Origin: Candidatus Omnitrophota bacterium
GTDB lineage: Bacteria; Omnitrophota; Gorgyraeia; Zapsychrales; JANLHA01
DNA length: 32,000 nucleotides
Reading direction: 5' to 3'
Assembly (NCBI GenBank): GCA_963662715.1
Contig: OY759724.1
Location: 630,001 to 662,000, forward strand
Shown here: positions 1-29,553 of the stretch, one piece after another
Layout: every line of letters begins with the position of its first letter
Position numbering within the stretch: the first letter of the stretch is position 1
Program-made: the position numbers and the translations under genes
The notes under the pieces: generated by a model
The model's database searches: none
Told to the model about the DNA's origin: nothing
The model's input: the letters and a program-made list of their open reading frames with translations, nothing else

Positions 1-323
1 TCATCGGTATCTTCGTATATCTCTTTCCCCCAGCGGCCGCCGCCGCCGACATTATTGACTAAAATATGTATCGTCCCCCACCTCCGGATCACCGCATCCA
101 TAACTTTGTAAACATCCGCTTCCGTTGTTACGTCGGCCTGCAGGGATAAAAAGTCGGCGCCCGTGTCCTGAAGTTCTTTCTTCATGGCAGACACCTTTTC
201 CTCTGTCCGTGAACAAACAGCGACCCGGCAACCTTCACGCGCCAAGGAAAAAGCGATCGCGCGTCCTATCCCGTGCGTCCCGCCGGATATAAAAGCTACC
301 TTATCTTTAAGCCCTAAGTCCAT
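1..323 (-). CDS. Short-chain dehydrogenase/reductase (classical SDR), N-terminal part only; the 3' end runs off the left window edge
   Basis: Not in the ORF track because it is truncated. My reverse-strand translation from ATG at 321-323 reads MDLGLKDKVAFISGGTHGIGRAIAFSLAREGCRVAVCSRTEEKVSAMKKELQ...ILVNNVGGGG. It has the GGxxGIG Rossmann motif and an NNVG motif. An AGGAA sequence sits 6 nt upstream of the ATG, and the upstream gene stops at 332. Confidence 0.8.
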   Translation of the reverse strand, partial: MDLGLKDKVAFISGGTHGIGRAIAFSLAREGCRVAVCSRTEEKVSAMKKELQDTGADFLSLQADVTTEADVYKVMDAVIRRWGTIHILVNNVGGGGRWGKEIYEDTD

Positions 324-331
324 GGAGATTC

Positions 332-1288
332 CTATGCTGTTTCCCTGTTGTTCCTGACCCAGTTCAAAACCCGTTCAGCCACATGATCCGCATCCAACCG
401 GTAATGACGATGAATGCTGTCCCTGCTGCTGGGTATTGTGCAATGGCTGTCCGGGCAGGCCAGTCTTTTCATCGGGACACCGCATCCCGCATCTGCCCTT
501 ATTTCAGCTAAAGCTGTTCCCAGCCCGCCGATCAAAGAATTTTCTTCCAGGGTCACGATCCTTTCGGCCCGCAACATCATATCAATCAAATCCGGTTCAT
601 TCAACGGTTTCACTTTGAAAACGTCGATAACCCTGACCGAAAGCCCTTCCCGGGCTAAAGATTCAGCCGCTTTAAGCGCTGTATGCACCATAAATCCGGT
701 CGAAAAGATAACGACATCCTGCCCCTCACGGACTTCGGACCAGCCTTTCTGAAGGTCATGGTTCCGGTCGTCGTAAAGCAGCGGCAGCTTCCCTTTTTCT
801 AACCGGATATACACCGGCCCGGGATGGTTGTACGCCCAGCGGACACTCGCCTCTGTTAAAACAGAATCCGTGGGATTAATGATTGTCATCCCGGGGAGCG
901 TCCGCATGACGGCGATATCATGCAGGGCATGATGGGTCGGCCCGTCGCCCCCGTACATAACGCCGGCACCTATGCCTATAATTGTCACCGGAAGGTTCAT
1001 CCCGGATAAATCCACTTTGATCTGTTCGTAACATCTTAGGGTGACAAAAGGCACAATACTGTAAATAAAAACATTCTTTCCGCCCAAGGCTAAACCGGCC
1101 GCCACACTCACCATATTCTGTTCGGCCACGCCGACATTGATATACTGCTCCGGAAGATTCTGTTTAAACCGTTCCAGACTAAAAGCGCCCATATCCGCGG
1201 TCATAAAAATAACATTCCTGTCCACCCGGGCCATCCGGAACAATTCGTCAAAGAAAGCGTCCCGGGTGTCTACGTCGGATATTTTCAT
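332..1288 (-). CDS. Transketolase-family ThDP enzyme, C-terminal subunit (pyrimidine-binding plus C-terminal domain)
   Basis: The sequence FMTADMGAFSLERF...YINVGVAEQNMVSVAAGLALGGKNVFIYSIVPF...DGPTHHALHDIAVMR is typical of the Pyr domain of split transketolases. The track ORF begins at a GTG (1306) that overlaps the upstream gene. The ATG at 1288 (MKISDVDTRDAFF) lies 4 nt after the upstream stop and is preferred. Confidence 0.85.
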   Translation of the reverse strand: MKISDVDTRDAFFDELFRMARVDRNVIFMTADMGAFSLERFKQNLPEQYINVGVAEQNMVSVAAGLALGGKNVFIYSIVPFVTLRCYEQIKVDLSGMNLPVTIIGIGAGVMYGGDGPTHHALHDIAVMRTLPGMTIINPTDSVLTEASVRWAYNHPGPVYIRLEKGKLPLLYDDRNHDLQKGWSEVREGQDVVIFSTGFMVHTALKAAESLAREGLSVRVIDVFKVKPLNEPDLIDMMLRAERIVTLEENSLIGGLGTALAEIRADAGCGVPMKRLACPDSHCTIPSSRDSIHRHYRLDADHVAERVLNWVRNNRETA

Positions 1289-1292
1289 ACAT

Positions 1293-2138
1293 TCAGTTCC
1301 GTTCACAATTCAGCAGCTCCTCAAGCTCGGTTCTGGCCTGCTCCACCTGCGCTTCTTTCGGGACCCCGTGGTGCCACTCCAGCCGGCTTTCCATAAAAGA
1401 AACACCTTTTCCTTTGACCGTATGGGCCACGATCATTAACGGTTTCCGGGAAGAACGCTGACGCACATCTCCCAAAACAGACAAAAGCTGACAGAAATCA
1501 TGTCCGTCCGCCTCCCGGACCTCCCAGCCGAAAGCGGACCACTTTTCCGCCAGCGGTTCCATCGCCGCACAGTCTTCCAGTCTGTCTGTCACACACATTT
1601 TATTATGATCAACGACAGCGATCAGATGGCTGAGATGATGTTGGGCGGCAAACATGGCCGACTCCCATACCGCCCCCTCGCAGCACTCGCCGTCTCCCAA
1701 TAAAACAAAAGTCAAAAATCCTGCCCCGTCCATCCTGGCGCTTAACGCCAGCCCGGCCCCGATCCCCAATCCGTGCCCCAGAGAACCGGTATCCGCCTCT
1801 ATCCCGGGGATGGATCTGTCAGGATGGCCTCCTAATATACAGTCCGGCTGCTGGTAACGCGACAGCTCCTCTTCCGGGAAAAAACCGCAATCCGCCAAGA
1901 TGGCATACAACGCTTCACACGAATGACCTTTACTGAGGATGAAACGGTCCCGGTCCGGCCAGGCAGGCTTTTGCGGATCAAACTTAAGGATCCCGCCGTA
2001 ATAAAGAGCCACGAGAATGTCCGTGCAGGAAAAAGAGCCGCCGATATGGCCTTTTCTGGCACGGGCTATCATCTCAAGCGTCTTGATGCGGATATTCTGG
2101 GCTTTGCGGAATAGGGGATGATTGGTCTTCTCTGTCAT
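1293..2138 (-). CDS. Transketolase-family ThDP enzyme, N-terminal (diphosphate-binding) subunit
   Basis: It has GHIGGSFSCTDIL, the SKGH motif, and the ThDP fold motif GDGECCEGAVWESAMFAAQHHLSHLIAVVDHN (GDG-X-N). At 281 aa it has the typical size of the N-terminal half of a split transketolase. Confidence 0.85.
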   Translation of the reverse strand: MTEKTNHPLFRKAQNIRIKTLEMIARARKGHIGGSFSCTDILVALYYGGILKFDPQKPAWPDRDRFILSKGHSCEALYAILADCGFFPEEELSRYQQPDCILGGHPDRSIPGIEADTGSLGHGLGIGAGLALSARMDGAGFLTFVLLGDGECCEGAVWESAMFAAQHHLSHLIAVVDHNKMCVTDRLEDCAAMEPLAEKWSAFGWEVREADGHDFCQLLSVLGDVRQRSSRKPLMIVAHTVKGKGVSFMESRLEWHHGVPKEAQVEQARTELEELLNCERN

Positions 2139-3656
2139 TCAATGAGCTCTTCTAAAAAAGGAAATCCGGACGTTTTTAATGACCCGCTGAACCACTCCTT
2201 CCAATTTTGTTGTGGTTCTCCCCTGGAAAGCATTGCGGACCATCTGCAGTATTCGCCGGGGATGGGTCAGAAGCATTAAAGCATAAAAATGACTTAAAAG
2301 CAAAAATCTCAAACTGCTGAGGGTCCGCGGGCCGAAGCGTTCAGACCAGGAGACCGCTTTACTCAAGTCGGCATACCCGAACAAGTTTAAAAAGTAATCG
2401 TCGGAAAGCGTCAGTTTCTTTTGCCGTAAGAAAGAGTCAAAAAGCTCTGATCCCGGATAAGGGATAAAAGGGAAAACATTGACTTCCTGCAACCCTTTCA
2501 CGGCTAAACGGGTCAACAGCCGATATGTTTTTAAGAAATCCTTCCACCCTTCCTCGGGCAGGCCGATGACGATATTCGTACTAAGATTCATGCCCACAGC
2601 CAATCCGTCTTCGATCAGCCGGAATATCTTCTGCGGGTCGTTCTTCTTCTTGACGCTTTTCAGGACGTTGAGCGACCCGGACTCGATCGCGAAATCCAAA
2701 TCCCGGCACCCGGCCTGATGCATCAGCCGCAGGACATCATAATCCACGGCCTCTGTCCTTAATGTCGGCAGCTGCCACGTCACATTGATTTTACGCTCTA
2801 TCAACTCCTCACACAAGCTTATTATGTTATCTTTTCTCATCACCGCCGTCAAATCCGAAAAGACAAAATTATCCGCCCCGTATTCACGGATATACGTCTC
2901 CATTTCATCAACCACGTCTTTGGCTTCCCGGGGGATCCAGGGCCGGCCCCACATATTCTTGTTTGAACAAAAGGTACATTGATAGGGGCACCCGCGGGTG
3001 GCCAGGATAGGGATTGTACGTCCGCGCCGGATATGATAGTTATAGCCGCGCGACAGATAGTGGTCCAGCGGAAGCAGGTCCCAGGCCGGCCAGGGGATGG
3101 CTCCGATATCCCTGATTCTCGGAGCCCGGGGAGTGCGCATATATCCCTCCTGTTCCGGTTTCCGGATCATCAAACTCGGCACGTCGGCAAAGTCTGCCTG
3201 CTGATCTATCGCATCCAGAAGCCGCACAATAACATCCTCTCCTTCCCCCAGGACGCAGATATCCAGTTCCGGGCAATCGTTCAAGCTGTATTCCGGCAAA
3301 GCTGTTATGTGTTCCCCCCCGGCGAAAAAAACGCTCCCCGGGAATAACCGGCGGACATGCTGAATCAAATCACGGTGAAAAGGCCAGTCCTGGGAAAACA
3401 TGCACGTAAAGCCGAAAACTTTTGAAGGGGAAAGACGGTCCTTCAGGCCCGCGAAGCTCATGCCGTATTGTATAAATCTGCCGTGGACAATCTCCGTACG
3501 GCTGATGTCTTCCCCGCACATATCGACAATATCCACGTCATGCCCCGCGGCCCGCAAAGCAGCCCCGACATAGGCGATACCGAGGTAGGGGACTAACTGG
3601 GCGCCCATAAAACCCCTGCTGCTGTAAGCAGGAGGACGGATAAGAGTCACTTTCAT
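2139..3656 (-). CDS. Radical SAM enzyme with an N-terminal B12-binding-type domain (class B rSAM, methyltransferase-like)
   Basis: The N terminus MKVTLIRPP...LGIAYVGAALRAAGHDVDIVD has the Rossmann-like pattern of a B12-binding domain. The CxxxCxxC cluster is ATRGCPYQCTFCS at aa 223-230. The gene abuts the downstream gene with no gap. Confidence 0.8.
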   Translation of the reverse strand: MKVTLIRPPAYSSRGFMGAQLVPYLGIAYVGAALRAAGHDVDIVDMCGEDISRTEIVHGRFIQYGMSFAGLKDRLSPSKVFGFTCMFSQDWPFHRDLIQHVRRLFPGSVFFAGGEHITALPEYSLNDCPELDICVLGEGEDVIVRLLDAIDQQADFADVPSLMIRKPEQEGYMRTPRAPRIRDIGAIPWPAWDLLPLDHYLSRGYNYHIRRGRTIPILATRGCPYQCTFCSNKNMWGRPWIPREAKDVVDEMETYIREYGADNFVFSDLTAVMRKDNIISLCEELIERKINVTWQLPTLRTEAVDYDVLRLMHQAGCRDLDFAIESGSLNVLKSVKKKNDPQKIFRLIEDGLAVGMNLSTNIVIGLPEEGWKDFLKTYRLLTRLAVKGLQEVNVFPFIPYPGSELFDSFLRQKKLTLSDDYFLNLFGYADLSKAVSWSERFGPRTLSSLRFLLLSHFYALMLLTHPRRILQMVRNAFQGRTTTKLEGVVQRVIKNVRISFFRRAH

Positions 3657-3663
3657 GATGAGC

Positions 3664-4704
3664 TTATACTTTCAAATCTTCCGTACTGCAACAACTAGAT
3701 CCTCTGTTTTTTCTATAGATCGGATGGCCCCACATCTGGTGGATCAGATTTTTAAGGCCGTTGTCTTTGACATTTCCGAATGTATGCGGGAAGGCCACAC
3801 AAAGCTGAATATCTCCGTAAGGGGAAATATTCAGTATGCGCCCGCTTAACGCCTGGCAGACCTTTGTCTTTCCTTTTACGGAATAGGCGCCCTCAATAAA
3901 GGCAAAAGACGGGTCCATATGTTCGATCACAAATTTTTTTTCCTGTTCCGACAACTCGATTTCTTTCTTTTTAACCCATTCTCCGGCGATGATCGGGAAA
4001 AGGATCCGGATCCCGGTAGCTTTCAGTGCCTTGGCCAAAGAGATGATCGCACTAAGCGGGCTGTCGTCATGCAAAGCGGCAAAATTTTTTATTCTGCGGC
4101 GGGTCGCATAGGTTGAAGCAATGCACGGGATCCCTTCTTCATGACACATGCGGATGCCCTCAATCGCTTTCAGATACACGCCCGGCAACCCGCGGAGGCG
4201 GTCATGCTCTTCTTCGTCCACACTGTCCAAGCTCACATTAATACAGCTGATCCCCGCCTGTTTCAAATCCAGAATCATCTGGCGGTTGAGCATCCAGGCG
4301 TTTGTGGTCAAAGAGATATACAAACCCAGTTCTTCTCCGTAACGCACCAACTCAACAATATCTTTCCGCAGAAGAGGTTCTCCTCCGAAATAATCGACCT
4401 TAGGGATACCCATAGCCACGGCCTGATCGAGAATGTGTTTAATCTCTTCTGTTTTTAACTCCCTGTGCAGATCCGCGTCACTGAAATAATTGGAAACCGA
4501 ACAGTGCTTGCACCGGCAATTACAGCGGTATGTCACGGAAAGTTCAATAAGCCAGGGGACCTTTTTCCTGAAAATATTCGTCAATACCCAGTACCGGGCC
4601 ATGATATAAGCTTTCTTCGGTGTCATGCGGCTTAAGCCGACCCGGGCATAAAGGCGTATCATCCCCAGAAAACGTTTAAAATTTCTTCCATAACTGCTCA
4701 TCAT
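3664..4704 (-). CDS. Radical SAM enzyme with a C-terminal twitch/SPASM-like Cys motif
   Basis: It has the SVTYRCNCRCKHCS cluster, a GGEPLL SAM-binding motif, and the C-terminal CQALSGRILNISPYGDIQLC, which fits CX13GX4C. A strong SD (AAGGAG) lies 3-6 nt before the ATGATG start. Confidence 0.8.
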   Translation of the reverse strand: MMSSYGRNFKRFLGMIRLYARVGLSRMTPKKAYIMARYWVLTNIFRKKVPWLIELSVTYRCNCRCKHCSVSNYFSDADLHRELKTEEIKHILDQAVAMGIPKVDYFGGEPLLRKDIVELVRYGEELGLYISLTTNAWMLNRQMILDLKQAGISCINVSLDSVDEEEHDRLRGLPGVYLKAIEGIRMCHEEGIPCIASTYATRRRIKNFAALHDDSPLSAIISLAKALKATGIRILFPIIAGEWVKKKEIELSEQEKKFVIEHMDPSFAFIEGAYSVKGKTKVCQALSGRILNISPYGDIQLCVAFPHTFGNVKDNGLKNLIHQMWGHPIYRKNRGSSCCSTEDLKV

Positions 4705-4861
4705 TTACTCCTTCTTCTGTGACCGATATTGAACTCGGATATTAAAATAAAGAGGCACCCCTCCAGAGAAACGGGCTGAGGGTTTGACGGATATTTCTTC
4801 CATCATATATAATCTCATATAAAATACAACCTTTATAGCGAAAAAGTAACTTAAAACAGGC

Positions 4862-4898
4862 AAGAAAAACCGGCAGCCCCTTTCCATGAAGTGGCTGC
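4862..4898 (-). terminator. Weak terminator-like hairpin just after the stop of the 4905-5942 gene
   Basis: On the minus strand, GCAGCC (4873-4878) pairs with GGCTGC (4893-4898) around a 14-nt loop. It is followed by CGG TTTTT CTTG. The stem is only 6 bp and the loop is large, so at best this is a partial terminator or attenuator. Confidence 0.3.
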
Positions 4899-4904
4899 GG
4901 CGCA

Positions 4905-5942
4905 TCATTTCAACTTTTTCTTAAAACGTTCAAGGACAATCCGGGTCGCATTATAAATGGATCCGACTCTTAAGCCGAATATCAAGTTCAGATCATTGCA
5001 GCAGACATTCTGACATGCCTGGCAGGGGTTCCGGCTCAAATGCTCCCAGCTCTTCTTAAATCCCACCTCCAAAAAATTACAGGGCTTATATTTATTGACA
5101 AGCACAACACACGGATAAACATCCCCGTTCGCCTCTATATGACAGCCGAAACGTTTAATATAACACGGAAAAGGCCGGTATCCTTCCGGCAACCGGTCCC
5201 AGATGATCTGCTGTTTGCTTTCCAAAGGCCAGCGCAGGTAATGACTGTATGACTCTTTGGAAAAAAAGACCGGCTCCCCTTTTTCTTTTAAAGCAATGAT
5301 TTTCTTCACAAGGCTTTTCAACTCATCATCCGGGATGCTGACGGATTTATCCGGGGAATCCTCTTCCCTTAACAGGCTGAACTGCACACGCGTCCCGAAC
5401 CTCCCGGCCAGCGATAAAAGCTCTTCAATGGATTCCGTATTGTTTTTGGTTAAAACCGTATGCAGGTGGAATTTGATGTTCTCTCTTTTAAGACATTCCA
5501 ACCCCTGCATAATCCGCTGATAAGTCCCCTGCCCCCTGTTCAGATCGTTCCTCTCTCCGATGCCGTCCAGGCTCACGGCAATGGAATCAATTTTTCTCAA
5601 AACCGGGATACGGGACGGGATCAAAAGGCCGTTTGTGCTGAGATGACACAGCAAGCCTTTGGATTTGATTTTATCAACGATCTCCGCGATATCCGTCCGT
5701 AAAAGAGCTTCTCCGCCGTTAAGGGAAATATACTTTGTGCCTAACCGGTGAAGTTCATCAATCAGCTCAAAAATTCTTTCTTTGGGTATCTCCTGGGTGT
5801 TCCGGTCGTAATATTCGGCATAACAATAAACACAGCGGATATTACAGCGGTTTGTGACGCACAGCGTGACAAAGATAGGGACTCTTCGACGCAAGAACCG
5901 CGCTTTGCCGATAGCCCACAAATAAGCGACATATTTTTTCAT
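4905..5942 (-). CDS. Radical SAM enzyme with a full SPASM-type C-terminal domain
   Basis: It has the CVTNRCNIRCVYCY cluster and NGGEALL. The C terminus carries CYIKRFGCHIEANGDVYPC (CX12GX4C) followed by CQACQNVCC. Its N-terminal region is paralogous to 3664-4704: ...RRRVPIFVTLCVTNRC against ...RKKVPWLIELSVTYRC. Confidence 0.8.
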   Translation of the reverse strand: MKKYVAYLWAIGKARFLRRRVPIFVTLCVTNRCNIRCVYCYAEYYDRNTQEIPKERIFELIDELHRLGTKYISLNGGEALLRTDIAEIVDKIKSKGLLCHLSTNGLLIPSRIPVLRKIDSIAVSLDGIGERNDLNRGQGTYQRIMQGLECLKRENIKFHLHTVLTKNNTESIEELLSLAGRFGTRVQFSLLREEDSPDKSVSIPDDELKSLVKKIIALKEKGEPVFFSKESYSHYLRWPLESKQQIIWDRLPEGYRPFPCYIKRFGCHIEANGDVYPCVVLVNKYKPCNFLEVGFKKSWEHLSRNPCQACQNVCCNDLNLIFGLRVGSIYNATRIVLERFKKKLK

Positions 5943-5955
5943 AACGGTGCAACCA

Positions 5956-7422
5956 TCATTGTTTTAAACGGCATTTCAGCATGCCGAAAAATTTTCCTAT
6001 CATATCCCCGTTCACCACGCCATCCGGGGACACCCATTCTTTTATGAGTGTCGGCCAGTGGTAACGGATAAAACCGAGGTACAATTCTTTTTGCCAGCGC
6101 GCCAAATCGTCCGGGGTGAAATCCGGGGTTCTTAAAAGCGATGAAAACAGCTCAACCCGGTTTTCATCCTCGGCCGAAGATTCGACCAGCCAGCCTTTCT
6201 CTTTGCATTCATCATAAAGTTCGGTTTTGGGATAAGGCGTAAATATCCCGACCGTAATAAGGCTCAAAGGCAGACGCGCCATAAGAGCTTTGCTTTCTTC
6301 AAAATCAGCGCGCGTTTCCCCCGGGGCCCCAACCAGGAAATAACCGATCGTCGGGATCCCGGCGTCACGGAACCAGTGAAAAACCTGTTCGATTTTTTCC
6401 ATGCTCAGCCCCTTGCGGTACACCTGGTTTCGGATGCGCTCACTGCCGGACTCAATCGCCAGGCACACGCTGGTGCACCCGGAGGCTTTCATCAGACGCA
6501 CCAATTCTTCATCGATACTTTTTATGCTGAGGCCGTTATGAAAATTATATTTCACCGGCCATTTCTGATCGATAATGCCCTGGCAGACGGCTTTGGCCCT
6601 TTTTAAATCCAGGCTGAAATTATCATCAATAAAATAAAAATGATAAACGTCAAAACGCTCCATCAGATATTTCAATTCGCTTAACACGTTCTGCGCCGAG
6701 CGCGGCCGCCATCTCCGGCCGTGGGTCAGGTACATATTACAAAAACGGCACCGGTTCGGGCAACTGCGGGAGGACAAGACCGGCAGACAGGGTGTCGGCA
6801 ATTCAAATATGCGTCTCTGGTATTTAAAGTACTCTTTCAGGTCTGCAAGATGCCAGGCCGGGAAAGGGATATCATCCAGTCTTTCATTATAAGCCTGCTT
6901 TTCTATGATGATATTCCGCTGATCCTGCCGGAAGGCGATCCCGTCGACCCGCCGGCAGGATTCCGTTAAACTTAACCCGGAGGCAAGACCGTCAATGACA
7001 TGGAGAAACGTAAGTTCGGCTTCCCCCAGGATAATGATATCAACCGCCTGGCATTGTTCAAGACAGTATTCCCATTCACTGGTGGGAAACAATCCCCCGA
7101 CAGCGACCGGAACTTCCGGCCGGGCCTGTTTGACCTGAGAGGCAATCCGGGCCACAAACCGCCAGCGCGCCGTAAAAGAACAGGTGATCCCCACAAAATC
7201 ATAGTCCTCATGTTTTAAAAAATCTTCCACATCCGCGTCCCCGAGGCCGTAACGGTAGACCCGGCCGCTTGAACGGACCGGCCCTAAAGACGCGTCATAA
7301 ACTTTGACCGTATGCCCCCCTTTTTCCAGCATGGCCGCCAGATAAAATAACGCCATGGACGGGGCCCGGGAATCAAATTCATTGCTGTGGGTATACTGGG
7401 GATAGATCAGCAGAATTTTCAA
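5956..7422 (-). CDS. Radical SAM enzyme with an N-terminal B12-binding-type domain (second class B rSAM)
   Basis: It has (M)KILLIYPQ...FYLAAMLEKGGHTVKVYD and the cluster SSRSCPNRCRFCN. The start codon is TTG at 7420-7422, preceded by a perfect AGGAGG (7430-7435) at 7-nt spacing. The next in-frame Met would delete the conserved first beta-strand. Confidence 0.8.
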   Translation of the reverse strand: MKILLIYPQYTHSNEFDSRAPSMALFYLAAMLEKGGHTVKVYDASLGPVRSSGRVYRYGLGDADVEDFLKHEDYDFVGITCSFTARWRFVARIASQVKQARPEVPVAVGGLFPTSEWEYCLEQCQAVDIIILGEAELTFLHVIDGLASGLSLTESCRRVDGIAFRQDQRNIIIEKQAYNERLDDIPFPAWHLADLKEYFKYQRRIFELPTPCLPVLSSRSCPNRCRFCNMYLTHGRRWRPRSAQNVLSELKYLMERFDVYHFYFIDDNFSLDLKRAKAVCQGIIDQKWPVKYNFHNGLSIKSIDEELVRLMKASGCTSVCLAIESGSERIRNQVYRKGLSMEKIEQVFHWFRDAGIPTIGYFLVGAPGETRADFEESKALMARLPLSLITVGIFTPYPKTELYDECKEKGWLVESSAEDENRVELFSSLLRTPDFTPDDLARWQKELYLGFIRYHWPTLIKEWVSPDGVVNGDMIGKFFGMLKCRLKQ

Positions 7423-14084: not shown

Positions 14085-14103
14085 AACAAATACGCCCTTC
14101 TTT

Positions 14104-16227: not shown

Positions 16228-16366
16228 ATCAAAGTTTCTCCTCAAGCTGAACACCTGATTCGCATTTCATGAATAATGACTCCCTTAGTCTGGGCAGCAA
16301 ACCTTACCCGTTTGCGCACTAATTGTTCCTGAAGGGCTGCGCATAATCTTCCTCATACTTAAAAGG

Positions 16367-18640: not shown

Positions 18641-18644
18641 AAAT

Positions 18645-19685: not shown

Positions 19686-19845
19686 TGTTTATCTCCGGTC
19701 ATGAGGGAGTGAAGCAAATCTGTGTCAGGATTTTCGCAAGCAGGTTTTATGGCTCTGTGGTTCATATTCTAAGAGTTTTAACATCCGGACTTTGAGAATG
19801 AGAGGTTCGTCGGGCTCCCGGCCGGAGCCGTCCATCAAGGCCCCC

Positions 19846-20502: not shown

Positions 20503-20544
20503 AGCCAAAGGGTCAATCTTTCGTTCAGGTTAAAGGGACATAAT

Positions 20545-23026: not shown

Positions 23027-23718
23027 AGACCCTTCTTATCCTTGATGCCGACGCCCATTCCGAAAATATAATGGGCCATCGGCGCATATCCGGTATGCAG
23101 AATTTCATCATTCATCGAAAACATAAACACGTTCTTAAAATACTTTTCCATAAGGCCGCGGAGAGTTTTCTGGCTCTTCAGGTTAATATGCTGCACTTTA
23201 CTGCGGTAGGTGGCGTACCTGTTGGCGGTGATATTGGGGGTCCCGACAATACAGACGCCGTCTCTGTTTAAACAGCGGACCTGATTCTCCATAAAAACTC
23301 TGTTGAGCTTGGGGTCGAGATGTTCTATCACATCTATGGAGAAGATACCGTCAAATATTTCATCCGGGACGGACCGGCAAATGTCCATGTTCTTAAAGAC
23401 AACATTTTTAATCTTTTTCAGCCTTTGCCGGTTTCCTCTAATCAGCCGGTCAACCGGGTCGATCGCCAGGACAGACTGCGCGTGCTGCGCCACCACCGGC
23501 ACGCCGAAACCGTCCCCGCATCCGACCTCCAGCACTTTGGCTTTTCCGTCGAGCATTTTGGCGCAGAATTTATACCGGGCCAAGACAAACCCCAAATGCT
23601 TGGGGTCGTGCAACAGGCTGTAGGATGACCACGGCCCCAGGTTCAATGATGAAATGAACTGATGGTCCGTTCCTAAACGGAGCGCTTCTTGTTGGGATAT
23701 TTTTTTTCTTTTTTTCAT
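23023..23718 (-). CDS. Class I SAM-dependent methyltransferase
   Basis: Motif I is VLEVGCGDGFGVPV, and FSIDVIEHL is the post-II/III motif typical of Methyltransf_11/23-type enzymes. Confidence 0.8.
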   Translation of the reverse strand: MKKRKKISQQEALRLGTDHQFISSLNLGPWSSYSLLHDPKHLGFVLARYKFCAKMLDGKAKVLEVGCGDGFGVPVVAQHAQSVLAIDPVDRLIRGNRQRLKKIKNVVFKNMDICRSVPDEIFDGIFSIDVIEHLDPKLNRVFMENQVRCLNRDGVCIVGTPNITANRYATYRSKVQHINLKSQKTLRGLMEKYFKNVFMFSMNDEILHTGYAPMAHYIFGMGVGIKDKKGL

Positions 23719-23764: not shown

Positions 23765-24631
23765 TTAATCCATGCTGCCGTGACGCCGGAGCTTATACAT
23801 ATGCGGGTCCTTTTTCAGTTGCCGGATAAGACTGTCAGCCGGCCGGCCTCTCCAGGGGTCGTGGACAACAGAAAAATTCCTTCCCGAGGCAACAGCCTTC
23901 CCCTGACGCACAAGACCATTGATGCAGTCGAATATATCCTGATAGGACGTTCCCTGTTCATGGGTTAAAAACTCTTGCGTCAACCGGTATTTATCAGCAG
24001 AGACATGCGGATCATTAAGAATCAGCTGGTGAATCTTTGTTTTTGTCCACCCCGGTCCCACGATAAAAATATTGAGGTCCTTGTTTTCTTCGTCTAAATA
24101 TTCACACATTTTTATAAGCAAGATCTTGCCAACCGTATAAGCGGAAAAATTCCTGACCGGTTTGTTTACCCCTCCCCCGGCAAAAAAAACAGCATGATGC
24201 TTTTTCCCCTTTTTTCTTAATGGATATAAGAGGTGCAAGACACGCAACTGGGCAAAAGAATTAACGGTCACAGAATCAAGCCAGGCATCAAAATCCGCAT
24301 CAAAAAAAGCCTGTACAGGCCGCGGCTCCCCGACACAGGAAATAAAAATATCCCAAGGAGTTTTTAACGCGGCATACCTGTCATACAAAGTCTGCAGGCT
24401 GCGGCCTTTGGAGATATCACAGCGGATCAGAACACAGCCTTTTTGAGCTTCCAGGGTTTGCAAGGCCCTGGCCTTTGTCCGGTACGTCCCGATAACCCGG
24501 TCGCCGTTCTTCAAGTATTCCCGGGCGAGAAACAGGCCGATATCACTGCTCACGGAAAGGATAAAAACCGTCCTGGGAACTTTCTTTTTTCTCCGTGGCT
24601 GAGCCATACATTCCTTTTCTTCATCCCCCAT
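23765..24631 (-). CDS. SDR-like NAD(P)-binding oxidoreductase with an atypical glycine motif
   Basis: FILSVSSDIGLFLAREY sits in place of TGxxxGIG, and there is a SAYTVGK (YxxxK) catalytic motif. An alternative ATG at 24607 has AAGGAA 3-4 nt upstream. Confidence 0.65.
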   Translation of the reverse strand: MGDEEKECMAQPRRKKKVPRTVFILSVSSDIGLFLAREYLKNGDRVIGTYRTKARALQTLEAQKGCVLIRCDISKGRSLQTLYDRYAALKTPWDIFISCVGEPRPVQAFFDADFDAWLDSVTVNSFAQLRVLHLLYPLRKKGKKHHAVFFAGGGVNKPVRNFSAYTVGKILLIKMCEYLDEENKDLNIFIVGPGWTKTKIHQLILNDPHVSADKYRLTQEFLTHEQGTSYQDIFDCINGLVRQGKAVASGRNFSVVHDPWRGRPADSLIRQLKKDPHMYKLRRHGSMD

Positions 24632-24666: not shown

Positions 24667-25701
24667 CTAGTAAGGACCTAAGAAAGTGTCGGTCGTCAGC
24701 GCGCATTCTTTATTGTAAGGGACGTCCCTGTCCAGTAAATGCAAGACTGTTTCAATAATATTCTGGCAGGAAGGGTAGAACCTGTCTTCCAACGTTTTTG
24801 AAACCGGGCAGGGACTGAAAGCCCACCCGATCCGTTTAACCGGTTTCTTGAGCGAGCCAAAAGCCTGGTCCGCGACAACCGCCGCCACTTCAGCCGAAAA
24901 ACCGCAGCGCAGCCAGTCATTATCAACACATATCAGATGTCCGGTCTTTTTGACGGACTCAATAATCGTCCTTTCGTCCATGGGCTGCAAACTGACCGGG
25001 TCGATGATTTCCAGGTCAATACCGTGCGCCTCTAATATCCCGGCCGCTTTTAAAGCTTCCGGGACCATAAGCGATGTCGCTACGACCGTAACATCTTTTC
25101 CCCGGCGGCAGACATGGGCTTTACCAAAATCAAAGGTGTACATCTCCTCAGAGACAGGACCCACCGTATCATAAAGGGCCCGGGATTCCAGAATAACCAC
25201 CGGCCCGTCTGTCTGCAGGGCCTGCAGTATAAGGCCTTTGGCAAGATACGGCGAACTGGGGACCGCGACATGTAACCCAGGGACGTGCGCGCAAACGGCC
25301 TGAATGTTCTGGGAATGGGTCACCCCCTGCCCCCACCCTTTGCCGACAATGCCACGCACAAGGCAAGGCACCGAAGTCTTGCCCGCGTAAACATATTTCC
25401 ACTTGGCGGCGTTGTTGAGAAGCTGGTCCAGCGCGAGAAACATAAAGTCATTGCGGGCATGCACCATAACAGGTCTTTTTCCATTGACCGCAGCCCCCAA
25501 AGTTATGCCCATAAGGGCTCCTTCGCTCGCAGGCGTGTCAAAAACTCGTTCCGGGCCGAAACGCCGGTAAGCTTCCCTCGTGGTGCCAAAGATCCCCTTA
25601 TAATCATCCACGCCGAGGCCAAAGATGAAGATATCCGGGTCATTGTCCATCGCCTGAACCAAGGCTTCGCTAATCGCATCTTTATAAGACAATGTTCTCA
25701 T
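24667..25701 (-). CDS. 2-oxoacid dehydrogenase E1 component beta-subunit-like (transketolase-like Pyr plus C-terminal domains)
   Basis: MRTLSYKDAISEALVQAMDNDPDIFIFGLGVDD...RVFDTPASEGALMGITLGAA is the canonical E1-beta N terminus. I chose the ATG at 25701 rather than the track start at 25749 because E1-beta proteins begin with this motif. Confidence 0.85.
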   Translation of the reverse strand: MRTLSYKDAISEALVQAMDNDPDIFIFGLGVDDYKGIFGTTREAYRRFGPERVFDTPASEGALMGITLGAAVNGKRPVMVHARNDFMFLALDQLLNNAAKWKYVYAGKTSVPCLVRGIVGKGWGQGVTHSQNIQAVCAHVPGLHVAVPSSPYLAKGLILQALQTDGPVVILESRALYDTVGPVSEEMYTFDFGKAHVCRRGKDVTVVATSLMVPEALKAAGILEAHGIDLEIIDPVSLQPMDERTIIESVKKTGHLICVDNDWLRCGFSAEVAAVVADQAFGSLKKPVKRIGWAFSPCPVSKTLEDRFYPSCQNIIETVLHLLDRDVPYNKECALTTDTFLGPY

Positions 25702-25761
25702 GCGTCTATCTCGTTTCCCAGAAGACCGGAAAATTTGCCCTCCAGGCATTCGGCATTAAAA

Positions 25762-26718
25762 TCAATACACATTTTCCAATAAAGTGTTTCCCTCAGGCCA
25801 GGGGCTCTTCAGGGCTTTCTGATAAGAGGCCTCGGCCTGCCCGCTCCATTCTTTCCGTTTTTCTTCAATTTCGTCTTGCGTCATAATACCCTGCCCCGTG
25901 ATAAACTCCTGCAGCCGCTGAATAGGGCAGCGCTCCATCCAGGACTCCACTTCCTCCTGGCTGCGGTAACCCCGATCATAATCGAATAAAGGGCCGACAT
26001 GTTCGCGTATCCGGTACGTGAGACATTCTAAAAACGCCGGGCCGTCCCCCTGCCGCACCCGCGGGATCAAATCCGAAACGGTTTGATAAAGCCTGACCGC
26101 GTCATTCCCGTCTGTCTGCCGGGACAAGAGTTCCGGGACTCTGATCCTTTCATAAATAGGAGACGGAGGCTGCCGGACACTTAAAGGCGAATGCGTAGAA
26201 TACAAATTGTTTTCACAGACAAAAAGGACCGGCAATTTCTTAAGAACGGCAAAGTTCAGGCTTTCCGAAAAGACGCCTTCTTCAACCGCGGCATCCCCGA
26301 AAAACACAACAGCAATTTTAGGGAGCCTGTCCATGAAGAATGAAAGGGCAGCGCCAACCGCAACCGGAATCATCGCCCCGAGAATCGGGGAAGCAAAAAC
26401 ATGTTTTTCGACACTGGACAAATGCGCTGACCCGGCCCGCCCCCGGCTGGAACCCGTCACCCGGCCGCACAGTTCAGCGAAAAAAGCGTCCAGACAGCCA
26501 CCCCTGGCCAGATAAGCGGCATGGCAGCGGTGAGACACAAAAACCTGGTCCTGCGGTTCGAGAGCCTGGCAGACAGCGGCCGCCACGGCTTCCTGCCCTA
26601 TCGATAGATGCGTCGGCGTCCGCATATTCTGTTCGGCATAAACGCTGACGATTTTTTCTTCCGTCTGCCGGATGCGCAACATCGTCAAAAAAATATTTTT
26701 ATAAGCATCTTCATTCAT
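25762..26718 (-). CDS. ThDP-dependent 2-oxoacid dehydrogenase E1 component alpha-subunit-like
   Basis: It has TPTHLSIGQEAVAAAV and the ThDP motif FFGDAAVEEGVFSESLNFAVLKKLPVLFVCENNLYS (GDA-X-ENN). No E2 or E3 gene is nearby. Confidence 0.85.
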   Translation of the reverse strand: MNEDAYKNIFLTMLRIRQTEEKIVSVYAEQNMRTPTHLSIGQEAVAAAVCQALEPQDQVFVSHRCHAAYLARGGCLDAFFAELCGRVTGSSRGRAGSAHLSSVEKHVFASPILGAMIPVAVGAALSFFMDRLPKIAVVFFGDAAVEEGVFSESLNFAVLKKLPVLFVCENNLYSTHSPLSVRQPPSPIYERIRVPELLSRQTDGNDAVRLYQTVSDLIPRVRQGDGPAFLECLTYRIREHVGPLFDYDRGYRSQEEVESWMERCPIQRLQEFITGQGIMTQDEIEEKRKEWSGQAEASYQKALKSPWPEGNTLLENVY

Positions 26719-26745: not shown

Positions 26746-27738
26746 TTATTTCAGCTCCAAAGCCTGCATCATGCGGATATTGTAATAACGGTTATCTTCC
26801 ATCGGCGCAGGGATTTTCCCGTCCGCAAATGCTCTTTTCAGATCAGAGCAGGCCTCTTCAATGCTGTGTCTCGGGGCAAATCCTAATTCTGTTAATATCT
26901 TCCGCGAAGAAATTTTGTACGACCGGTTGTCATCGGTAGGAACATGTTCGATATCAACCTGATCATTCCCGACGGCCTTCTTGACAATATCGGCAATCTC
27001 GTCAACCGAATAATTCTGATACCCGACATTATAGATCTTTCCGGCAATCTTTTCTTTCGGGAATTGCAGCGTCTGAACGTATAGATCCGTAATATCTTCA
27101 ATATGGATATTCGGCCTTTTTTGCCGCCCGCCAAAGACTTTAATACGCCCGTTGTTCACGGCATGATTCGTTAAGATGTTAACCGTCAGGTCCAGCCGCA
27201 GACGGGGAGAGAAGCCGCACACCGTAGCCGGCCTTAAAATCAGGATGGTAAAATCGTCATCCTGCCGGGTTAAAAGATACTCTTCACACAAAGCCTTGTA
27301 TTTGGAATAATCCGTTAAAGGTTCCAGAGCTAGGTCTTCCGTGACCTCCGGCTCCTTTTTAATACCGTAAACGCTTGAACTCGACGCAAATATAAAACGC
27401 TGCACCCCGGCTTTCTTAGCGATATCCACCAGACTCAGAAAAGCGTCATAATTGACGGATTTCCCTAAATCAGGGTTCAGTTCATAACTCGGGTCGTTGG
27501 AAATGCAGGCCAGATGAATGACGGCGTCAGAGCCGGGGATTTCCCGTGCCAGCAAATTCTGGTCACGGATATCCCCCTTAATCTGCGTTAACCCGGGATG
27601 ATCCTTAACGCTGTCGAGGACATGCTCCCCATAAATAAACCAGTCCAGAACTTTAACCTGGTACCCCTGGGAAAGAAGCTTGGGGATTAGAACCGAACCG
27701 ACGTAACCGGCCCCGCCTGTAACAAAAATATTCTTCAT
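26746..27738 (-). CDS. Extended-SDR NAD-dependent sugar epimerase/dehydratase
   Basis: It has IFVTGGAGYVGS (GxxGxxG) at the N terminus and YSKYK (YxxxK). It is 330 aa, with an ATGA start/stop overlap to the upstream GT9 gene. Confidence 0.85.
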   Translation of the reverse strand: MKNIFVTGGAGYVGSVLIPKLLSQGYQVKVLDWFIYGEHVLDSVKDHPGLTQIKGDIRDQNLLAREIPGSDAVIHLACISNDPSYELNPDLGKSVNYDAFLSLVDIAKKAGVQRFIFASSSSVYGIKKEPEVTEDLALEPLTDYSKYKALCEEYLLTRQDDDFTILILRPATVCGFSPRLRLDLTVNILTNHAVNNGRIKVFGGRQKRPNIHIEDITDLYVQTLQFPKEKIAGKIYNVGYQNYSVDEIADIVKKAVGNDQVDIEHVPTDDNRSYKISSRKILTELGFAPRHSIEEACSDLKRAFADGKIPAPMEDNRYYNIRMMQALELK

Positions 27739-28664
27739 GACAACAGTCTCTCACAAGTAGATGCGACAACCGCAGGCGAAATTTCATCCATACAAAAATC
27801 CTTATGTTTGCAGTACGGCAGATAACAGGGGCGGAAGGGACATTTCAGCGGAGAAGGGATCACGGTGACATTATGAATCTTTCGCATACGGTGATCATTC
27901 GTCGGGCCGAATAACGACACAACGTTTTTGCCCAAAGCCTGTCCGATGGCCTGCCCCAGAGAATCCGACGTCACCAGAATACGGCACTGCCCGATCCATT
28001 CCGTATAGCGTCTTAAATCCCTATGCCCTTTCTGCCAGGAGATCCGGTACTTCTTTCCCAACAGTTTCTCCAGCTTCTGCCAATGCTTTTTCGGCCATGC
28101 TTTTGTGGGCCATTTGGACCCCACAGCATAGTTAAAACCGACATCGTATCTTTCCCGCACCTTTCCGTTGGGCGGCAGAATCGGCCCCTGGCCCTCCCAG
28201 TTCTGTTCTACGGTCTCGGCCAGAATTTCAAGAAAAGATTTATTAATATGCCGGTGGTTCTCCTGCCCGGCCAGCAAATATTGATCGATCTTCCTGCGCG
28301 TTGAGATGGAGTAGGAACGTTCGTTAAAATAAAACCCGTATTTTTTTTTCGCTTTAACGTTGCTTAAGAACGTGCATATCCCGATATCCTTCTCCAGATT
28401 GACCATTATATCATACGATGATCCGCTTACTTGGTTTAAAGTCCTGGGGCCGAAAAAAAGCAGTTCGTGAATCATGGGATTGCCCTGCAACAGCCAGCGG
28501 GCTTCCCAGGAGGTCACCCACGTCACCCGGTCGTCCTGGAAATAATGCAAAAGCGCCGTACACATCAAAACGTCCCCCAGGCTCACGGTGATGGAAATGC
28601 CGCGGTCGAGAAGCTCGGAAAAACCGGTCTTTATGACAAGAATATTTCTTTTATTCCTTTTCAT
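27735..28664 (-). CDS. Family 9 glycosyltransferase (heptosyltransferase-like, GT-B fold)
   Basis: The N terminus is NILVIKTGFSELLDRGISITVSLGDVLMCTALL. The C-terminal donor-binding motif ILVTSDSLGQAIGQALGKNVVSLFGPTND matches the GT9 pattern (..nDsGp.HlA.AlG.p.v.lFGpT.p). The track ORF starts at TTG 28691, and I prefer the ATG at 28664. The start is uncertain. Confidence 0.7.
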   Translation of the reverse strand: MKRNKRNILVIKTGFSELLDRGISITVSLGDVLMCTALLHYFQDDRVTWVTSWEARWLLQGNPMIHELLFFGPRTLNQVSGSSYDIMVNLEKDIGICTFLSNVKAKKKYGFYFNERSYSISTRRKIDQYLLAGQENHRHINKSFLEILAETVEQNWEGQGPILPPNGKVRERYDVGFNYAVGSKWPTKAWPKKHWQKLEKLLGKKYRISWQKGHRDLRRYTEWIGQCRILVTSDSLGQAIGQALGKNVVSLFGPTNDHRMRKIHNVTVIPSPLKCPFRPCYLPYCKHKDFCMDEISPAVVASTCERLLS

Positions 28665-29553
28665 ATCGAATATCAACAGACGTGTAGCCAAAATTCTGCA
28701 GGTGATTCGTTTTGACTTTTATATCACACGGGCTGCAGAGGCCGAAGAAAGAACAGGGCCTGTGTTTATGTTCCAGGCAAAGATCTTCGTCCAGGATGTG
28801 CCCCAAAGCCAGGGAGGTCCGGCCCGCGTATAAATCCGAATGGCATTTGTAAATATGCCCGCCAGGCCCAAAAGGAAAAACCGTATTCCTGCACCACACT
28901 TTCCTGTGTTCTGCCGGGGATCCCTGGCAAGCCTCAGGATATTTATACTGTCCATACAGATGTCCGTCATATTCACCCAGGAATGCCTTAGTACGGAACT
29001 CCACGCCTTCTTTCCGGGCCAAGTTCCGGATCTCTTCGATTAAAGATGAATAAGCCGGGTGATCGATATGATAAAGACCGATGCTAAGGCCGCACTCTTC
29101 CTGCAGTTCTTTAATACGCCGGATCAGGCAACGGAAATCATTCTGGCCCTGATGAAAACTGACCCGTATTGTCGGATACGGAGCCGGCCTTTTGTTCCAA
29201 TTCAGATGAGTCAGCTTTTTAAATTGCTCCACCGTCAGAGACGGCGGCAAGGCGGTCAGGATATCCACCTTATGCTGCAGCTGTTCCAGCAATTCCCAAA
29301 TACCCTTGTAAAGAAAAGGTTCGCCTCCTTGCAGGGTCAACGGGACACCGGCCGGGAGTTTCAGACGGTTCAATCCCTGAATCCATAATTGCGGGGATAA
29401 TTCAGAAAAAGAACTGTCATTAATAAACGGCTGATTTAAATTTGTTATGCAATAGGAACACCTAAGGAAACAGCGGTTCGTGAGATAAATCCCGATATAA
29501 TCCGTATCCTGAGGGAGACAGATGGCAGATAAAACTTTTTCAGCTATTGGCAT
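28651..29553 (-). CDS. Radical SAM enzyme with a SPASM-like C-terminal Cys cluster; first gene of the operon
   Basis: It has the LTNRCFLRCSYCI cluster, LQGGEPFL, and the C-terminal CRNTVFPFGPGGHIYKC (CX10GX4C) followed by CLEHKHRPCSFFGLCSPC. There is no SD before the ATG. Confidence 0.75.
   Translation of the reverse strand: MPIAEKVLSAICLPQDTDYIGIYLTNRCFLRCSYCITNLNQPFINDSSFSELSPQLWIQGLNRLKLPAGVPLTLQGGEPFLYKGIWELLEQLQHKVDILTALPPSLTVEQFKKLTHLNWNKRPAPYPTIRVSFHQGQNDFRCLIRRIKELQEECGLSIGLYHIDHPAYSSLIEEIRNLARKEGVEFRTKAFLGEYDGHLYGQYKYPEACQGSPAEHRKVWCRNTVFPFGPGGHIYKCHSDLYAGRTSLALGHILDEDLCLEHKHRPCSFFGLCSPCDIKVKTNHLQNFGYTSVDIRYEKE

Follow-up and report, generated by a model that had tools for sequence, protein, structure and literature searches.

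A stretch of 32,000 nucleotides from a Candidatus Omnitrophota bacterium (contig OY759724.1, positions 630,001 to 662,000; hereafter the window) contains a cluster of 27 genes in which seven radical S-adenosylmethionine (SAM) proteins and three thiamine diphosphate (ThDP) enzyme systems are joined to glycosyltransferases and large membrane proteins. Our analysis indicates that this locus, which spans at least 30 kb and lies mostly within the window, probably serves the biosynthesis and attachment of an unusual, heavily tailored cell-envelope sugar, as a first-pass annotation made from the window sequence had proposed. The sugar assignment is supported by a compact relative that carries sugar aminotransferase, GNAT and cupin genes, by the HddA/HddC-like genes and the dolichyl-phosphate (Dol-P)-hexose-transferase-like family 2 glycosyltransferase (GT2) found downstream in relatives, by the occurrence of the core cassette in flagellar loci beside a glycosyltransferase, and by the nearest solved structures, JanthE, AprD4 and BlsE, together with the predicted GT-C folds of a 757-aa and a 716-aa membrane protein. 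Most likely, the system is an elaborate variant of a lipid-carrier-dependent surface-glycan pathway and not a lipid pathway or one for a ribosomally synthesized and post-translationally modified peptide (RiPP).

Gene content and organization

The 27 genes lie consecutively on the minus strand, in one direction and tightly packed, from position 29553 down to the left window edge (Table 1). Open reading frame (ORF) listing, junction arithmetic and Pfam domain calls, scored against the gathering thresholds, bear out the array, the junctions and the domains as first annotated. The inventory comprises seven radical SAM proteins (named here rS2, rS3, rS5, rS6, rS7, B12a and B12b), a split transketolase (TK; halves TKn and TKc), an E1α/E1β pair, a ThDP enzyme of the acetohydroxyacid synthase (AHAS) type, three short-chain dehydrogenases/reductases (SDRs), one extended SDR (Epi), two methyltransferases (MT1 and MT2), a PHP protein, a GT2, a family 9 glycosyltransferase (GT9), a tetratricopeptide repeat (TPR) protein and the large membrane proteins. 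Neighboring genes overlap by up to 41 nt or are separated by up to 46 bp, apart from four larger gaps of 200 bp (rS2/rS3), 127 bp (TPR/rS6), 112 bp and 160 bp, and a 434-bp spacer lies 5′ of the first gene. Relaxing the Pfam search to E ≤ 10 adds nothing new for the cluster proteins, and no NCBIfam model, scored against its own cut-off, is reached by any of the 27. An Rfam scan of the window at gathering scores finds no riboswitch or other RNA.

Conservation and synteny in relatives

The same gene order recurs in other genomes, and the arrangement is therefore not a matter of chance. Collinear clusters at 48–83% amino-acid identity are present in at least three other uncultured genomes (loci L017/L101, L018/L102 and L019/L020), and the named homologues of rS6 and of the 757-aa and 716-aa proteins are almost all labeled 'Candidatus Omnitrophota'. 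Differences between these relatives are modular. The B12b–rS3 pair (4905–7422) is absent in two and the 536-aa membrane protein gene in one, and L102 holds a seven-gene insertion (12226–21477) between its two large membrane (GT-C-like) genes, made up of a 912-aa YfhO protein, a flavin adenine dinucleotide (FAD) oxidoreductase, an SDR, an asparagine-synthase-like gene, two small ORFs and a GMC oxidoreductase. We take the FAD/GMC oxidoreductase and SDR of this insertion to recall the DprE1/DprE2-type epimerization of lipid-linked sugars. Gene content that comes and goes in this manner is typical of surface-glycan loci.

Two compact loci labeled 'uncultured Planctomycetales' (L004 and L005) run rS7–GT9–Epi–rS6–TKn–TKc–GNAT–MT2–DegT aminotransferase–cupin–MT1–GT2–YfhO-like–TPR, with 57–72% identity to the window over the first four genes (61–62% for rS7). 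Genes that stand 15–28 kb apart in the window are thus adjacent there and interleaved with classical nucleotide-sugar tailoring enzymes. Because L004 places rS7–GT9–Epi beside rS6 and the split TK together with GNAT, DegT and cupin genes, the two ends of the window appear to be functionally linked and their chemistry to be sugar chemistry; no other observation speaks as strongly as this compact locus for a single sugar pathway served by the genes of the window. The window can accordingly be read as a compact core with added modules: E1αβ–SDR, the AHAS-like enzyme, two small proteins, the 716- and 536-aa proteins, and an SDR–radical SAM–PHP–(B12b–rS3)–rS2–B12a block.

The core extends well beyond these genomes. 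A total of 2474 homologues of rS6 are found at E ≤ 1e-10, many of them 53–57% identical, from Lachnospiraceae, Acetivibrio, Fretibacterium, Riflebacteria and an archaeon. In Lachnospiraceae loci (including Eubacterium plexicaudatum ASF492), the rS6 homologue is accompanied by a second SPASM radical SAM protein, a split TK (43–49%), MT1 (46–50%), an epimerase, two more SPASM radical SAM proteins, a cobalamin (B12)-domain radical SAM protein, a formyltransferase and a DegT aminotransferase. This cassette lies directly downstream of fliW–csrA–flaG–fliD–fliS and a 692-aa glycosyltransferase, a position beside flagellar genes that suggests a flagellin glycosylation pathway in gut bacteria. Flagellar genes followed by a glycosyltransferase and the sugar cassette are seen in loci L001–L003, L006–L014 and L016 (Lachnospiraceae, Acetivibrio, E. 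plexicaudatum ASF492). With four SPASM-type radical SAM proteins and one B12-domain radical SAM protein in the Lachnospiraceae loci, sugar loci dense in such enzymes are not unique to the window, and the initial statement that radical SAM and ThDP sugar enzymes occur singly was an understatement.

The first-pass annotation also allowed for a continuation of the pathway to the left, beyond position 1, and synteny in L019 and L028 supports this well. In L019, genes for a 261-aa SDR and then a GT2 come after the TK. The metagenome contig L028 keeps the synteny of the left half and runs on past window position 1 with an SDR, a GT2, a GDP-fucose-synthase-like SDR, an HddA-like GHMP kinase, a pyridoxal phosphate (PLP) enzyme of the RfbH/DegT type, a NUDIX protein, an HddC-like nucleotidyltransferase and a 749-aa membrane protein. 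Its GT2, 72% identical to that of L019, has AglJ and dolichyl-phosphate hexose transferase as best models. Of the 42 metagenome loci that carry a split-TK relative and span 9 kb or more, 18 have E1α–E1β directly upstream, 21 an HddA-like kinase and/or HddC-like nucleotidyltransferase, and 12 a radical SAM gene; L038 has a full GmhA/HddA/GmhB/HddC-type set beside the split TK. The HddA- and HddC-like genes of L028 and the full set of L038 all score below the equivalog cut-offs (155 vs 600 bits; 197 vs 300 bits). Environmental contigs also show E1α–E1β–TKn–TKc as a recurrent four-gene block (among L022–L098, e.g. L026, L030, L054, L058 and L038), often with genes for an HddA-like kinase, an HddC-like nucleotidyltransferase, an RmlC-like protein, an aldo-keto reductase and a B12-domain radical SAM protein.

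As far as we have searched, the cluster corresponds to no characterized locus. No description of the cassette emerged from the literature on radical SAM proteins with transketolase, on flagellin glycosylation, on YfhO and HddA or on Omnitrophota, an Omnitrophota genome preprint does not mention the locus, and no curated family, solved structure or paper among those searched assigns a product.

Three ThDP enzyme systems

Three ThDP enzyme classes have been distinguished for C-branched sugars: YerE-like enzymes of the decarboxylase superfamily, which occur with lipopolysaccharide sugars; orphan E1αβ enzymes ('αKADH2'), which put C2 branches on antibiotic sugars; and split-gene transketolases, for which branching is only proposed, in miharamycin and amipurimycin, and whose 13 candidates are all from Streptomycetes with none characterized (PMC12247030). 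The window has one candidate for each class, and the ThDP-binding motifs (GDG/GDA...N) are intact in all three systems. Activity on keto-sugars would follow by analogy with these classes.

The AHAS-like protein has as its best PDB match 8rph (310 bits, vs 289 bits for the best true AHAS), which is the YerE-like enzyme JanthE (PMC12188165), and it falls below the cut-off of all AHAS equivalog models. SDR genes adjoining the ThDP genes are compatible with a reduction step of the YerF type (PMC9306805). With the YerE/YerF pathway of yersiniose A in the Yersinia pseudotuberculosis O-antigen, and with the YerE-like enzymes ErwE, MygE and JanthE, the window shares an AHAS-superfamily ThDP enzyme, an adjacent reductase and sugar genes. 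It differs in lacking the CDP-3,6-dideoxyhexose (Ddh/Asc) pathway and in joining this enzyme to two further ThDP systems and seven radical SAM proteins, and the match to JanthE is only about 20 bits above that to true AHAS.

No lipoyl/E2 or E3 domain is found by Pfam among the 27 cluster proteins, which makes the E1αβ pair an orphan. In make-up and context, a two-subunit E1 without E2/E3 among sugar-tailoring genes, the pair resembles the αKADH2 enzymes of aldgamycin, avilamycin (AviB1/B2) and kibdelomycin (KbDH-α/β) (PMC12247030). The known members belong to actinomycete antibiotic clusters, whereas the window is an envelope-type locus of a PVC-group bacterium. Likewise, separate genes inside a sugar-tailoring cluster encode the N and Pyr/C parts of the TK, as in miharamycin and amipurimycin (PMC12247030). 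In contrast to those Streptomycetes enzymes, relatives of the window type are widespread, in Lachnospiraceae, Acetivibrio, an archaeon and many metagenome contigs, often beside GmhA/HddA/GmhB/HddC-type genes.

Radical SAM proteins and sugar-tailoring enzymes

All seven proposed radical SAM proteins score above the gathering threshold of PF04055, the margin being thin for rS7 (28651–29553; 31.3 vs 29.5 bits). The first-pass annotation had given all seven an N-proximal CxxxCxxC cluster and a GGEP-type motif. The CxxxCxxC motif is present in 7/7, but in B12a and B12b it lies at residues ~221–230 and the GGEP-type motif is missing from both, and one other protein has GGEA. In rS7, CxxxCxxC occupies residues 28–35 and GGEP lies at 76, followed by Cys-rich C-terminal residues; its nearest structures, SkfB (best PDB match), PqqE and GDGT-MAS, align over the cluster-binding region only. 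Cys-rich C-termini are seen in rS2, rS3 and rS7, and the SPASM domain PF13186 is called in rS5 and rS6. B12a and B12b have the class B architecture, an N-terminal PF02310 domain fused to the radical SAM core, and are predicted to bind cobalamin.

The nearest solved or curated relatives of B12b and rS6 point to sugar-acting enzymes of antibiotic pathways (AprD4, GenK, BlsE, BtrN). The best PDB match of B12b is AprD4, the aminoglycoside C3-deoxygenating diol dehydratase (E = 4e-20), and that of rS6 is BlsE, the cytosylglucuronate decarboxylase (E = 1e-8); these similarities are remote and none reaches a family cut-off. B12b also scores below cut-off with the HpnJ and Sden_1168 models, and B12a matches 9ccb (an unnamed radical SAM protein), then AprD4, TokK and TsrM. 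AprD4 does not use cobalamin as a methyl carrier. Known sugar pathways have one or two radical SAM enzymes, compared with seven here. Because none of the seven reaches a curated family cut-off, the reactions that we name for them by analogy (C-methylation, deoxygenation, epimerization, oxidation) are guesses. In L028, a DUF362 protein with two 4Fe-4S ferredoxin domains (4283–5431) and an extra SDR are inserted among the radical SAM genes; the ferredoxin-type protein may be a dedicated electron donor for them.

Among the other tailoring enzymes, Epi is 70–72% identical to its counterparts in L004/L005, 68% in L084/85 and 52% in an archaeal locus, and scores below the cut-offs of the GalE, dTDP-glucose dehydratase and heptose epimerase models. 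The PHP protein bears a Cys-rich, zinc-ribbon-like C-terminal tail (residues ~221–268; CPLH...CLAC...CLDC...CCNGHYFCWDC) and weakly matches a metal-binding selenoprotein model.

Glycosyltransferases and membrane proteins

The 757-aa protein is, judging from its predicted structure, a GT-C-fold transferase of the YfhO type. The AlphaFold2 (AF2) model has a pLDDT of 91.9, and 20 of its 20 best Foldseek matches in the PDB are GT-C proteins (ArnT, EmbA/B/C, AglB, STT3, AftD, ALG12, Pmt4), enzymes that use polyprenyl-phosphate-linked donors; the alignment with ArnT has a template modeling score of 0.47 with probability 1.00 and E = 2e-3. The protein itself scores below the threshold of PF09586, the YfhO family that the first-pass annotation had named as a target (20 vs 28.5 bits, over the C-terminal 46 residues only). 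Its 53 homologues, the named ones nearly all from Omnitrophota, carry PF09586 in about half of cases, and several bear the name YfhO.

For the 716-aa protein, the top 25 Foldseek matches are all GT-C (STT3, DPY19, ArnT, PglB) on a model with an AF2 pLDDT of only 60, and hhalign of its family with the YfhO-like family gives a weak link (51% probability, E = 1.5e-4). The family has 856 representatives at the 50%-identity cluster level in a profile search, 339 of them at E ≤ 1e-30, and 0 of 51 sampled members has a Pfam domain. We regard it as a probable, still unannotated GT-C family without a Pfam model. An initial view of this protein as an orphan, with seven homologues in a word-indexed search, was dropped once the profile search had given the 856 representatives. 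Sequence and profile searches return no PDB match for the 757-, 716- or 536-aa protein. The 536-aa protein shows no relation to either of the other two families. We also considered the three as paralogues: no such relationship is detectable in shallow alignments, and deeper profiles hint only at the link between the 757- and 716-aa proteins.

The two small membrane proteins (168 and 177 aa), listed at first simply as membrane proteins, each combine three N-terminal transmembrane (TM) segments with a soluble C-terminal domain of ~80 aa in a hydropathy scan, and both are kept in all full-length relatives. We tried them as a paralogous ArnE/F-like flippase pair and found no mutual similarity and no family match. 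With a single TM helix at its N-terminus and a gene that comes after the YfhO-like one in the compact locus, the TPR protein may act as an extracytoplasmic partner. The window, like the annotated flanks of its relatives, gives no Pfam or NCBIfam match to a priming phosphoglycosyltransferase, Wzx/Wzy, ABC exporter or chain-length regulator domain.

Proposed pathway and its alternatives

The analysis shows the gene content, the intact cofactor motifs, the conservation and synteny, and a GT-C fold for the 757-aa protein; from these we infer a substrate, an order of reactions, a carrier and an acceptor as follows. A nucleotide sugar would be formed first, a step for which relatives have genes for an HddA-like anomeric kinase and an HddC-like nucleotidyltransferase just beyond the position of the left window edge. 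These activation genes point to a heptose-type or other higher sugar, which is our best available guess for the substrate, and the PHP enzyme could be the phosphatase. The extended SDR would make a keto-sugar, to which the three ThDP systems would add acetyl or hydroxyacetyl C2 branches, or whose chain they would lengthen, with SDRs reducing the new ketones. The two B12-domain and five other radical SAM proteins may carry out C-methylation, deoxygenation, epimerization or oxidation, and the two SAM-dependent methyltransferases may add O- or N-methyl groups. GT9 and GT2 would load the product onto an acceptor and/or polyprenyl phosphate, and, on the periplasmic side of this diderm host, the two GT-C-fold membrane enzymes with the TPR protein would pass it to an acceptor in the envelope. 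Joined into one picture, which we offer tentatively as possible rather than likely, an undescribed higher-carbon or multiply C-branched, C-methylated sugar would be built by three ThDP carboligations and up to seven radical steps and delivered by an unrecognized GT-C family, and rS6, the split TK and the methyltransferase would represent a widespread sugar-building reaction that is used also for flagellin glycosylation in gut Lachnospiraceae.

Several observations weigh against this pathway or parts of it. Sugar-activation genes are seen in relatives only, and the Lachnospiraceae core-cassette loci have no HddA/HddC-like genes within 10 kb, so that the heptose idea is not general. As the first-pass annotation had remarked, Pfam and NCBIfam scans find no nucleotidyltransferase, priming transferase, Wzx/Wzy or ABC exporter in the window, nor is there a recognizable flippase. 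The window GT2 has 0 predicted TM segments in the hydropathy scan and only weak similarity to polyprenyl-phosphate transferases. The Foldseek E-values of the 757-aa protein are weak (2e-3 or worse), though the matches are uniform, and the 716-aa model is of low confidence. No radical SAM protein reaches a curated NCBIfam cut-off. Finally, a split TK that supplies sedoheptulose-7-phosphate instead of branching a sugar is an equally valid reading of that enzyme.

The 200-bp spacer upstream of rS2 contains a promoter-like motif, GGTTGTATnTTnT-N6-TTnTATAnnAT (4800–4831), whose exact form occurs once in the window and whose degenerate form is found also in L017/L101 (L017 16610–16639) and L018 (19164–19193), within otherwise divergent spacers of ~200 bp. 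It may be an internal promoter for the rS2–B12a–TK–SDR part, and its conservation upstream of 3664–4704 argues for at least one internal start; because the gene content is modular as well, a single operon is unproven. The spacing and synteny of the 27 genes are compatible with co-transcription. The motif, the coming and going of the B12b–rS3 pair, the 536-aa gene and the seven-gene block among relatives, and the many metagenome loci with E1αβ–TK cassettes that have no radical SAM gene would all suit two or three adjacent independent units (one module for a heptose-type nucleotide sugar, another for a branched sugar and a generic one for YfhO-type glycosylation) in place of one pathway or operon. 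We nonetheless consider such a composite rather unlikely, as the whole order is kept across four genomes, the compact L004 mixes genes of all three putative modules, and the junctions are mostly overlaps or gaps below 50 bp, internal promoters being compatible with one pathway. A secreted specialized metabolite cluster, in which the tailored sugar is part of a diffusible aminoglycoside-like, nucleoside or oligosaccharide antibiotic, has in its favor that orphan E1αβ and split-gene transketolase branching enzymes have so far been described from antibiotic clusters (PMC12247030), that AprD4 and BlsE, the nearest solved radical SAM proteins, belong to antibiotic pathways, and that the window has no Wzx/Wzy or ABC exporter. 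This reading is improbable, however, in view of the two GT-C-fold transferases and membrane-anchored TPR protein that are conserved core or near-core parts, the Dol-P-hexose-transferase-like GT2 that comes next in relatives, and the core cassette in Lachnospiraceae flagellar loci; no aglycone, nonribosomal peptide or polyketide synthase, resistance or efflux gene is found in the window or its relatives.

The two alternatives offered by the first-pass annotation, a membrane-lipid modification and a RiPP pathway, gain no support, there being neither lipid-synthesis genes nor a precursor peptide. That the radical SAM proteins act on lipid tails or a lipid-linked polyol, in a hopanoid, polyprenol or ether-lipid pathway, is very improbable: the B12-domain proteins do match the HpnJ, HpnR and 'lipid biosynthesis B12/rSAM' models, and rS7 faintly matches Tes/GDGT-MAS, but the model scores lie far under the cut-offs (e.g. 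HpnJ 165 vs 578 bits), no cyclase, prenyltransferase or acyltransferase gene occurs in the window or relatives, and what the relatives have instead are genes for a sugar aminotransferase, an RmlC-like protein, a GHMP kinase and a nucleotidyltransferase. Least credible of all is maturation of a peptide by the SPASM radical SAM proteins. No maturase model reaches its cut-off in spite of many sub-threshold NCBIfam matches to MftC, PqqE, WgkB and StsB and of SkfB as the best PDB match of rS7, the window has no protease or exporter domain, and the context is one of sugar enzymes throughout. There is also no conserved small ORF. We looked upstream of rS7 for a precursor gene, and the small ORFs there are not conserved; the 42-aa Cys-containing ORF at 29591–29719 has no counterpart in L004, which leaves only ~130 bp before rS7.

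Cluster boundaries and neighboring genes

On the 5′ side, the cluster is preceded by an unrelated coiled-coil gene, and right after the stop codon of that gene comes a G+C-rich hairpin with a T-run (29897–29881). Scans for σ70 promoters and terminators performed overall no better than on shuffled sequence and are used here for the 5′ boundary only. The upstream gene, at 29988–31991 (−), has a 667-aa product in which a signal or anchor sequence precedes ~600 aa of coiled coil rich in Glu, Lys and Gln, and which has SMC-like coiled-coil matches only. The coiled coil is made of 261-bp (87-aa) tandem repeats (30343–31049), and these explain why GC and AT skew are strong at the right window end. 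Within the cluster, the AHAS-like gene wholly contains a 269-aa plus-strand ORF (21254–22063), located where G+C content is highest, which is probably a shadow ORF.

Table 1 Features of the cluster, from the left window edge to the 5′ boundary.
Feature	Coordinates	Strand	Evidence and remarks
SDR, 5′ part, runs off the window	1..323	−	Start at 323; 73% identical to the 261-aa SDR after TK in L019
Split transketolase, Pyr/C half (TKc)	332..1306	−	PF02779 + PF02780; 80 metagenome relatives found
Split transketolase, ThDP-binding (N) half (TKn)	1293..2138	−	PF00456 E 6e-44; GDG...DHN motif; 43–49% identical in Lachnospiraceae flagellar loci
B12a, cobalamin-binding-domain radical SAM	2139..3656	−	PF02310 52.5 bits (cut-off 32.1) + PF04055
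rS2, radical SAM	3664..4704	−	PF04055 E 1e-25; AhbD/NirJ-like score below cut-off; 80–83% identical in relatives
Promoter-like motif	4800..4831	−	200-bp spacer upstream of rS2; spacer alignment
rS3, radical SAM with Cys-rich C-terminus	4905..5942	−	PF04055; accessory, absent in L017/L019
B12b, cobalamin-binding-domain radical SAM	5956..7422	−	PF02310 76 bits (cut-off 32.1) + PF04055; accessory, absent in L017/L019
PHP-type metal phosphoesterase	7419..8291	−	PHP_C + CehA/McbA domain; candidate sugar-phosphate phosphatase
rS5, radical SAM–SPASM	8301..9419	−	PF04055 + PF13186 (24.1 vs cut-off 21.5 bits); CxxxCxxC at residues 34–41
Classical SDR	9385..10215	−	PF00106 E 1e-44
536-aa membrane protein, optional	10261..11871	−	No family match; 59–62% identity in L017/L018, absent in L019/L020
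TPR protein, one N-terminal TM/signal anchor	11903..12883	−	TPR_1/2; hydropathy scan; follows YfhO-like gene in L004
rS6, radical SAM–SPASM	13011..14084	−	PF04055 + PF13186 (31.8 vs cut-off 21.5 bits); most widely conserved core member
Polytopic membrane protein, 716 aa (annotated 707 aa)	14104..16254	−	No Pfam match; probable GT-C fold
757-aa GT-C-fold glycosyltransferase, divergent YfhO family	16367..18640	−	AF2 + Foldseek (predicted structure)
177-aa membrane protein	18645..19178	−	No family match; conserved in L017/L019
168-aa membrane protein	19179..19685	−	No Pfam/NCBIfam match; 56–61% identity in L017/L019
MT1, SAM-dependent methyltransferase, widely shared core	19846..20508	−	Methyltransf_25/11/31; 46–51% identity in Lachnospiraceae and Planctomycetales-labeled loci
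GT2, GT-A	20545..21270	−	PF00535 E 7e-23; weak matches including PgfS, ArnC, AglJ
AHAS-superfamily ThDP enzyme, YerE-like candidate	21242..23026	−	TPP_enzyme N/M/C; GDG...N + HEQ motifs
MT2, SAM-dependent methyltransferase	23023..23718	−	Methyltransf_11/23/25; 81–83% identity in L017/L019, 37–44% in compact loci
SDR, candidate side-chain ketoreductase	23765..24631	−	PF00106/PF13561; conserved in L101/L102; putative role
E1β-type subunit	24667..25749	−	Transket_pyr + Transketolase_C
E1α-type ThDP subunit, orphan E1	25762..26718	−	PF00676 E 2e-52; GDA...ENN motif; PDB matches to E1α of pyruvate and branched-chain ketoacid dehydrogenases (PDH/BCKDH)
Epi, extended-SDR NDP-sugar epimerase/dehydratase	26746..27738	−	PF01370 E 6e-39
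GT9, heptosyltransferase-type, GT-B	27735..28691	−	PF01075 35.5 vs cut-off 22 bits; best PDB match 3tov (GT9); 57% identical in L004/L005
rS7, 300-aa radical SAM, first cluster gene	28651..29553	−	Overlaps GT9 gene by 41 nt; PF04055 31.3 bits
5′ boundary	29554..29900	−	Terminator-like hairpin of the upstream gene (29897–29881), then AT-rich promoter-like stretch; consensus matches only

Comparison with known glycan systems and significance

Three-component polyprenyl-phosphate glycosylation systems are known as CsbB/GtcA/YfhO, GtrB/GtrA/GtrV, ArnC/ArnEF/ArnT and PgfS/PgfM1/PgfM2. The window likewise has a GT2 near a YfhO-family GT-C protein, and the second GT2 of relatives resembles Dol-P-hexose transferases. 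It differs from these systems in that no flippase of the GtrA/GtcA or ArnE/F type is recognized in the window, that two or three large membrane proteins and a TPR partner are present, and that the sugar would come from a very large dedicated pathway and not from the common UDP-sugar pool. With the GDP-D-glycero-α-D-manno-heptose pathway (GmhA, HddA, GmhB, HddC) it shares the HddA- and HddC-like genes that follow the cluster in relatives, as well as a GT9 and a phosphoesterase in the window; none of the four pathway genes is in the window itself, however, and the window phosphatase is of the PHP type and not the HAD type. In outline, and by analogy, the locus may thus resemble established polyprenyl-phosphate/GT-C systems of surface glycosylation, supplied by a nucleotide-sugar pathway of its own. 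What would set it apart is the combination of seven radical SAM proteins with candidates for each of the three ThDP branching classes, the lack of Wzx/Wzy, ABC or priming enzymes in the window, the unannotated GT-C-like family and the host lineage.

Split-gene transketolases have been thought to be confined to Streptomyces (PMC12247030), and the relatives described here are widespread in surface-glycan loci of uncultured bacteria and gut Lachnospiraceae. Should the more tentative picture given above be right, split-gene transketolases would gain a first physiological role in making glycans beyond Streptomyces. The locus also offers concrete candidates to those in search of new radical SAM and ThDP chemistry on sugars or of new bacterial sugars, and a way to define an unannotated GT-C-like membrane family. 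Nothing in it overturns a principle, and its value lies mainly with enzymologists and glycobiologists. Omnitrophota are abundant, uncultured and in part epibiotic or predatory, and we know of no account of their surface chemistry; the locus points to a dedicated and costly decoration of the envelope in these bacteria.

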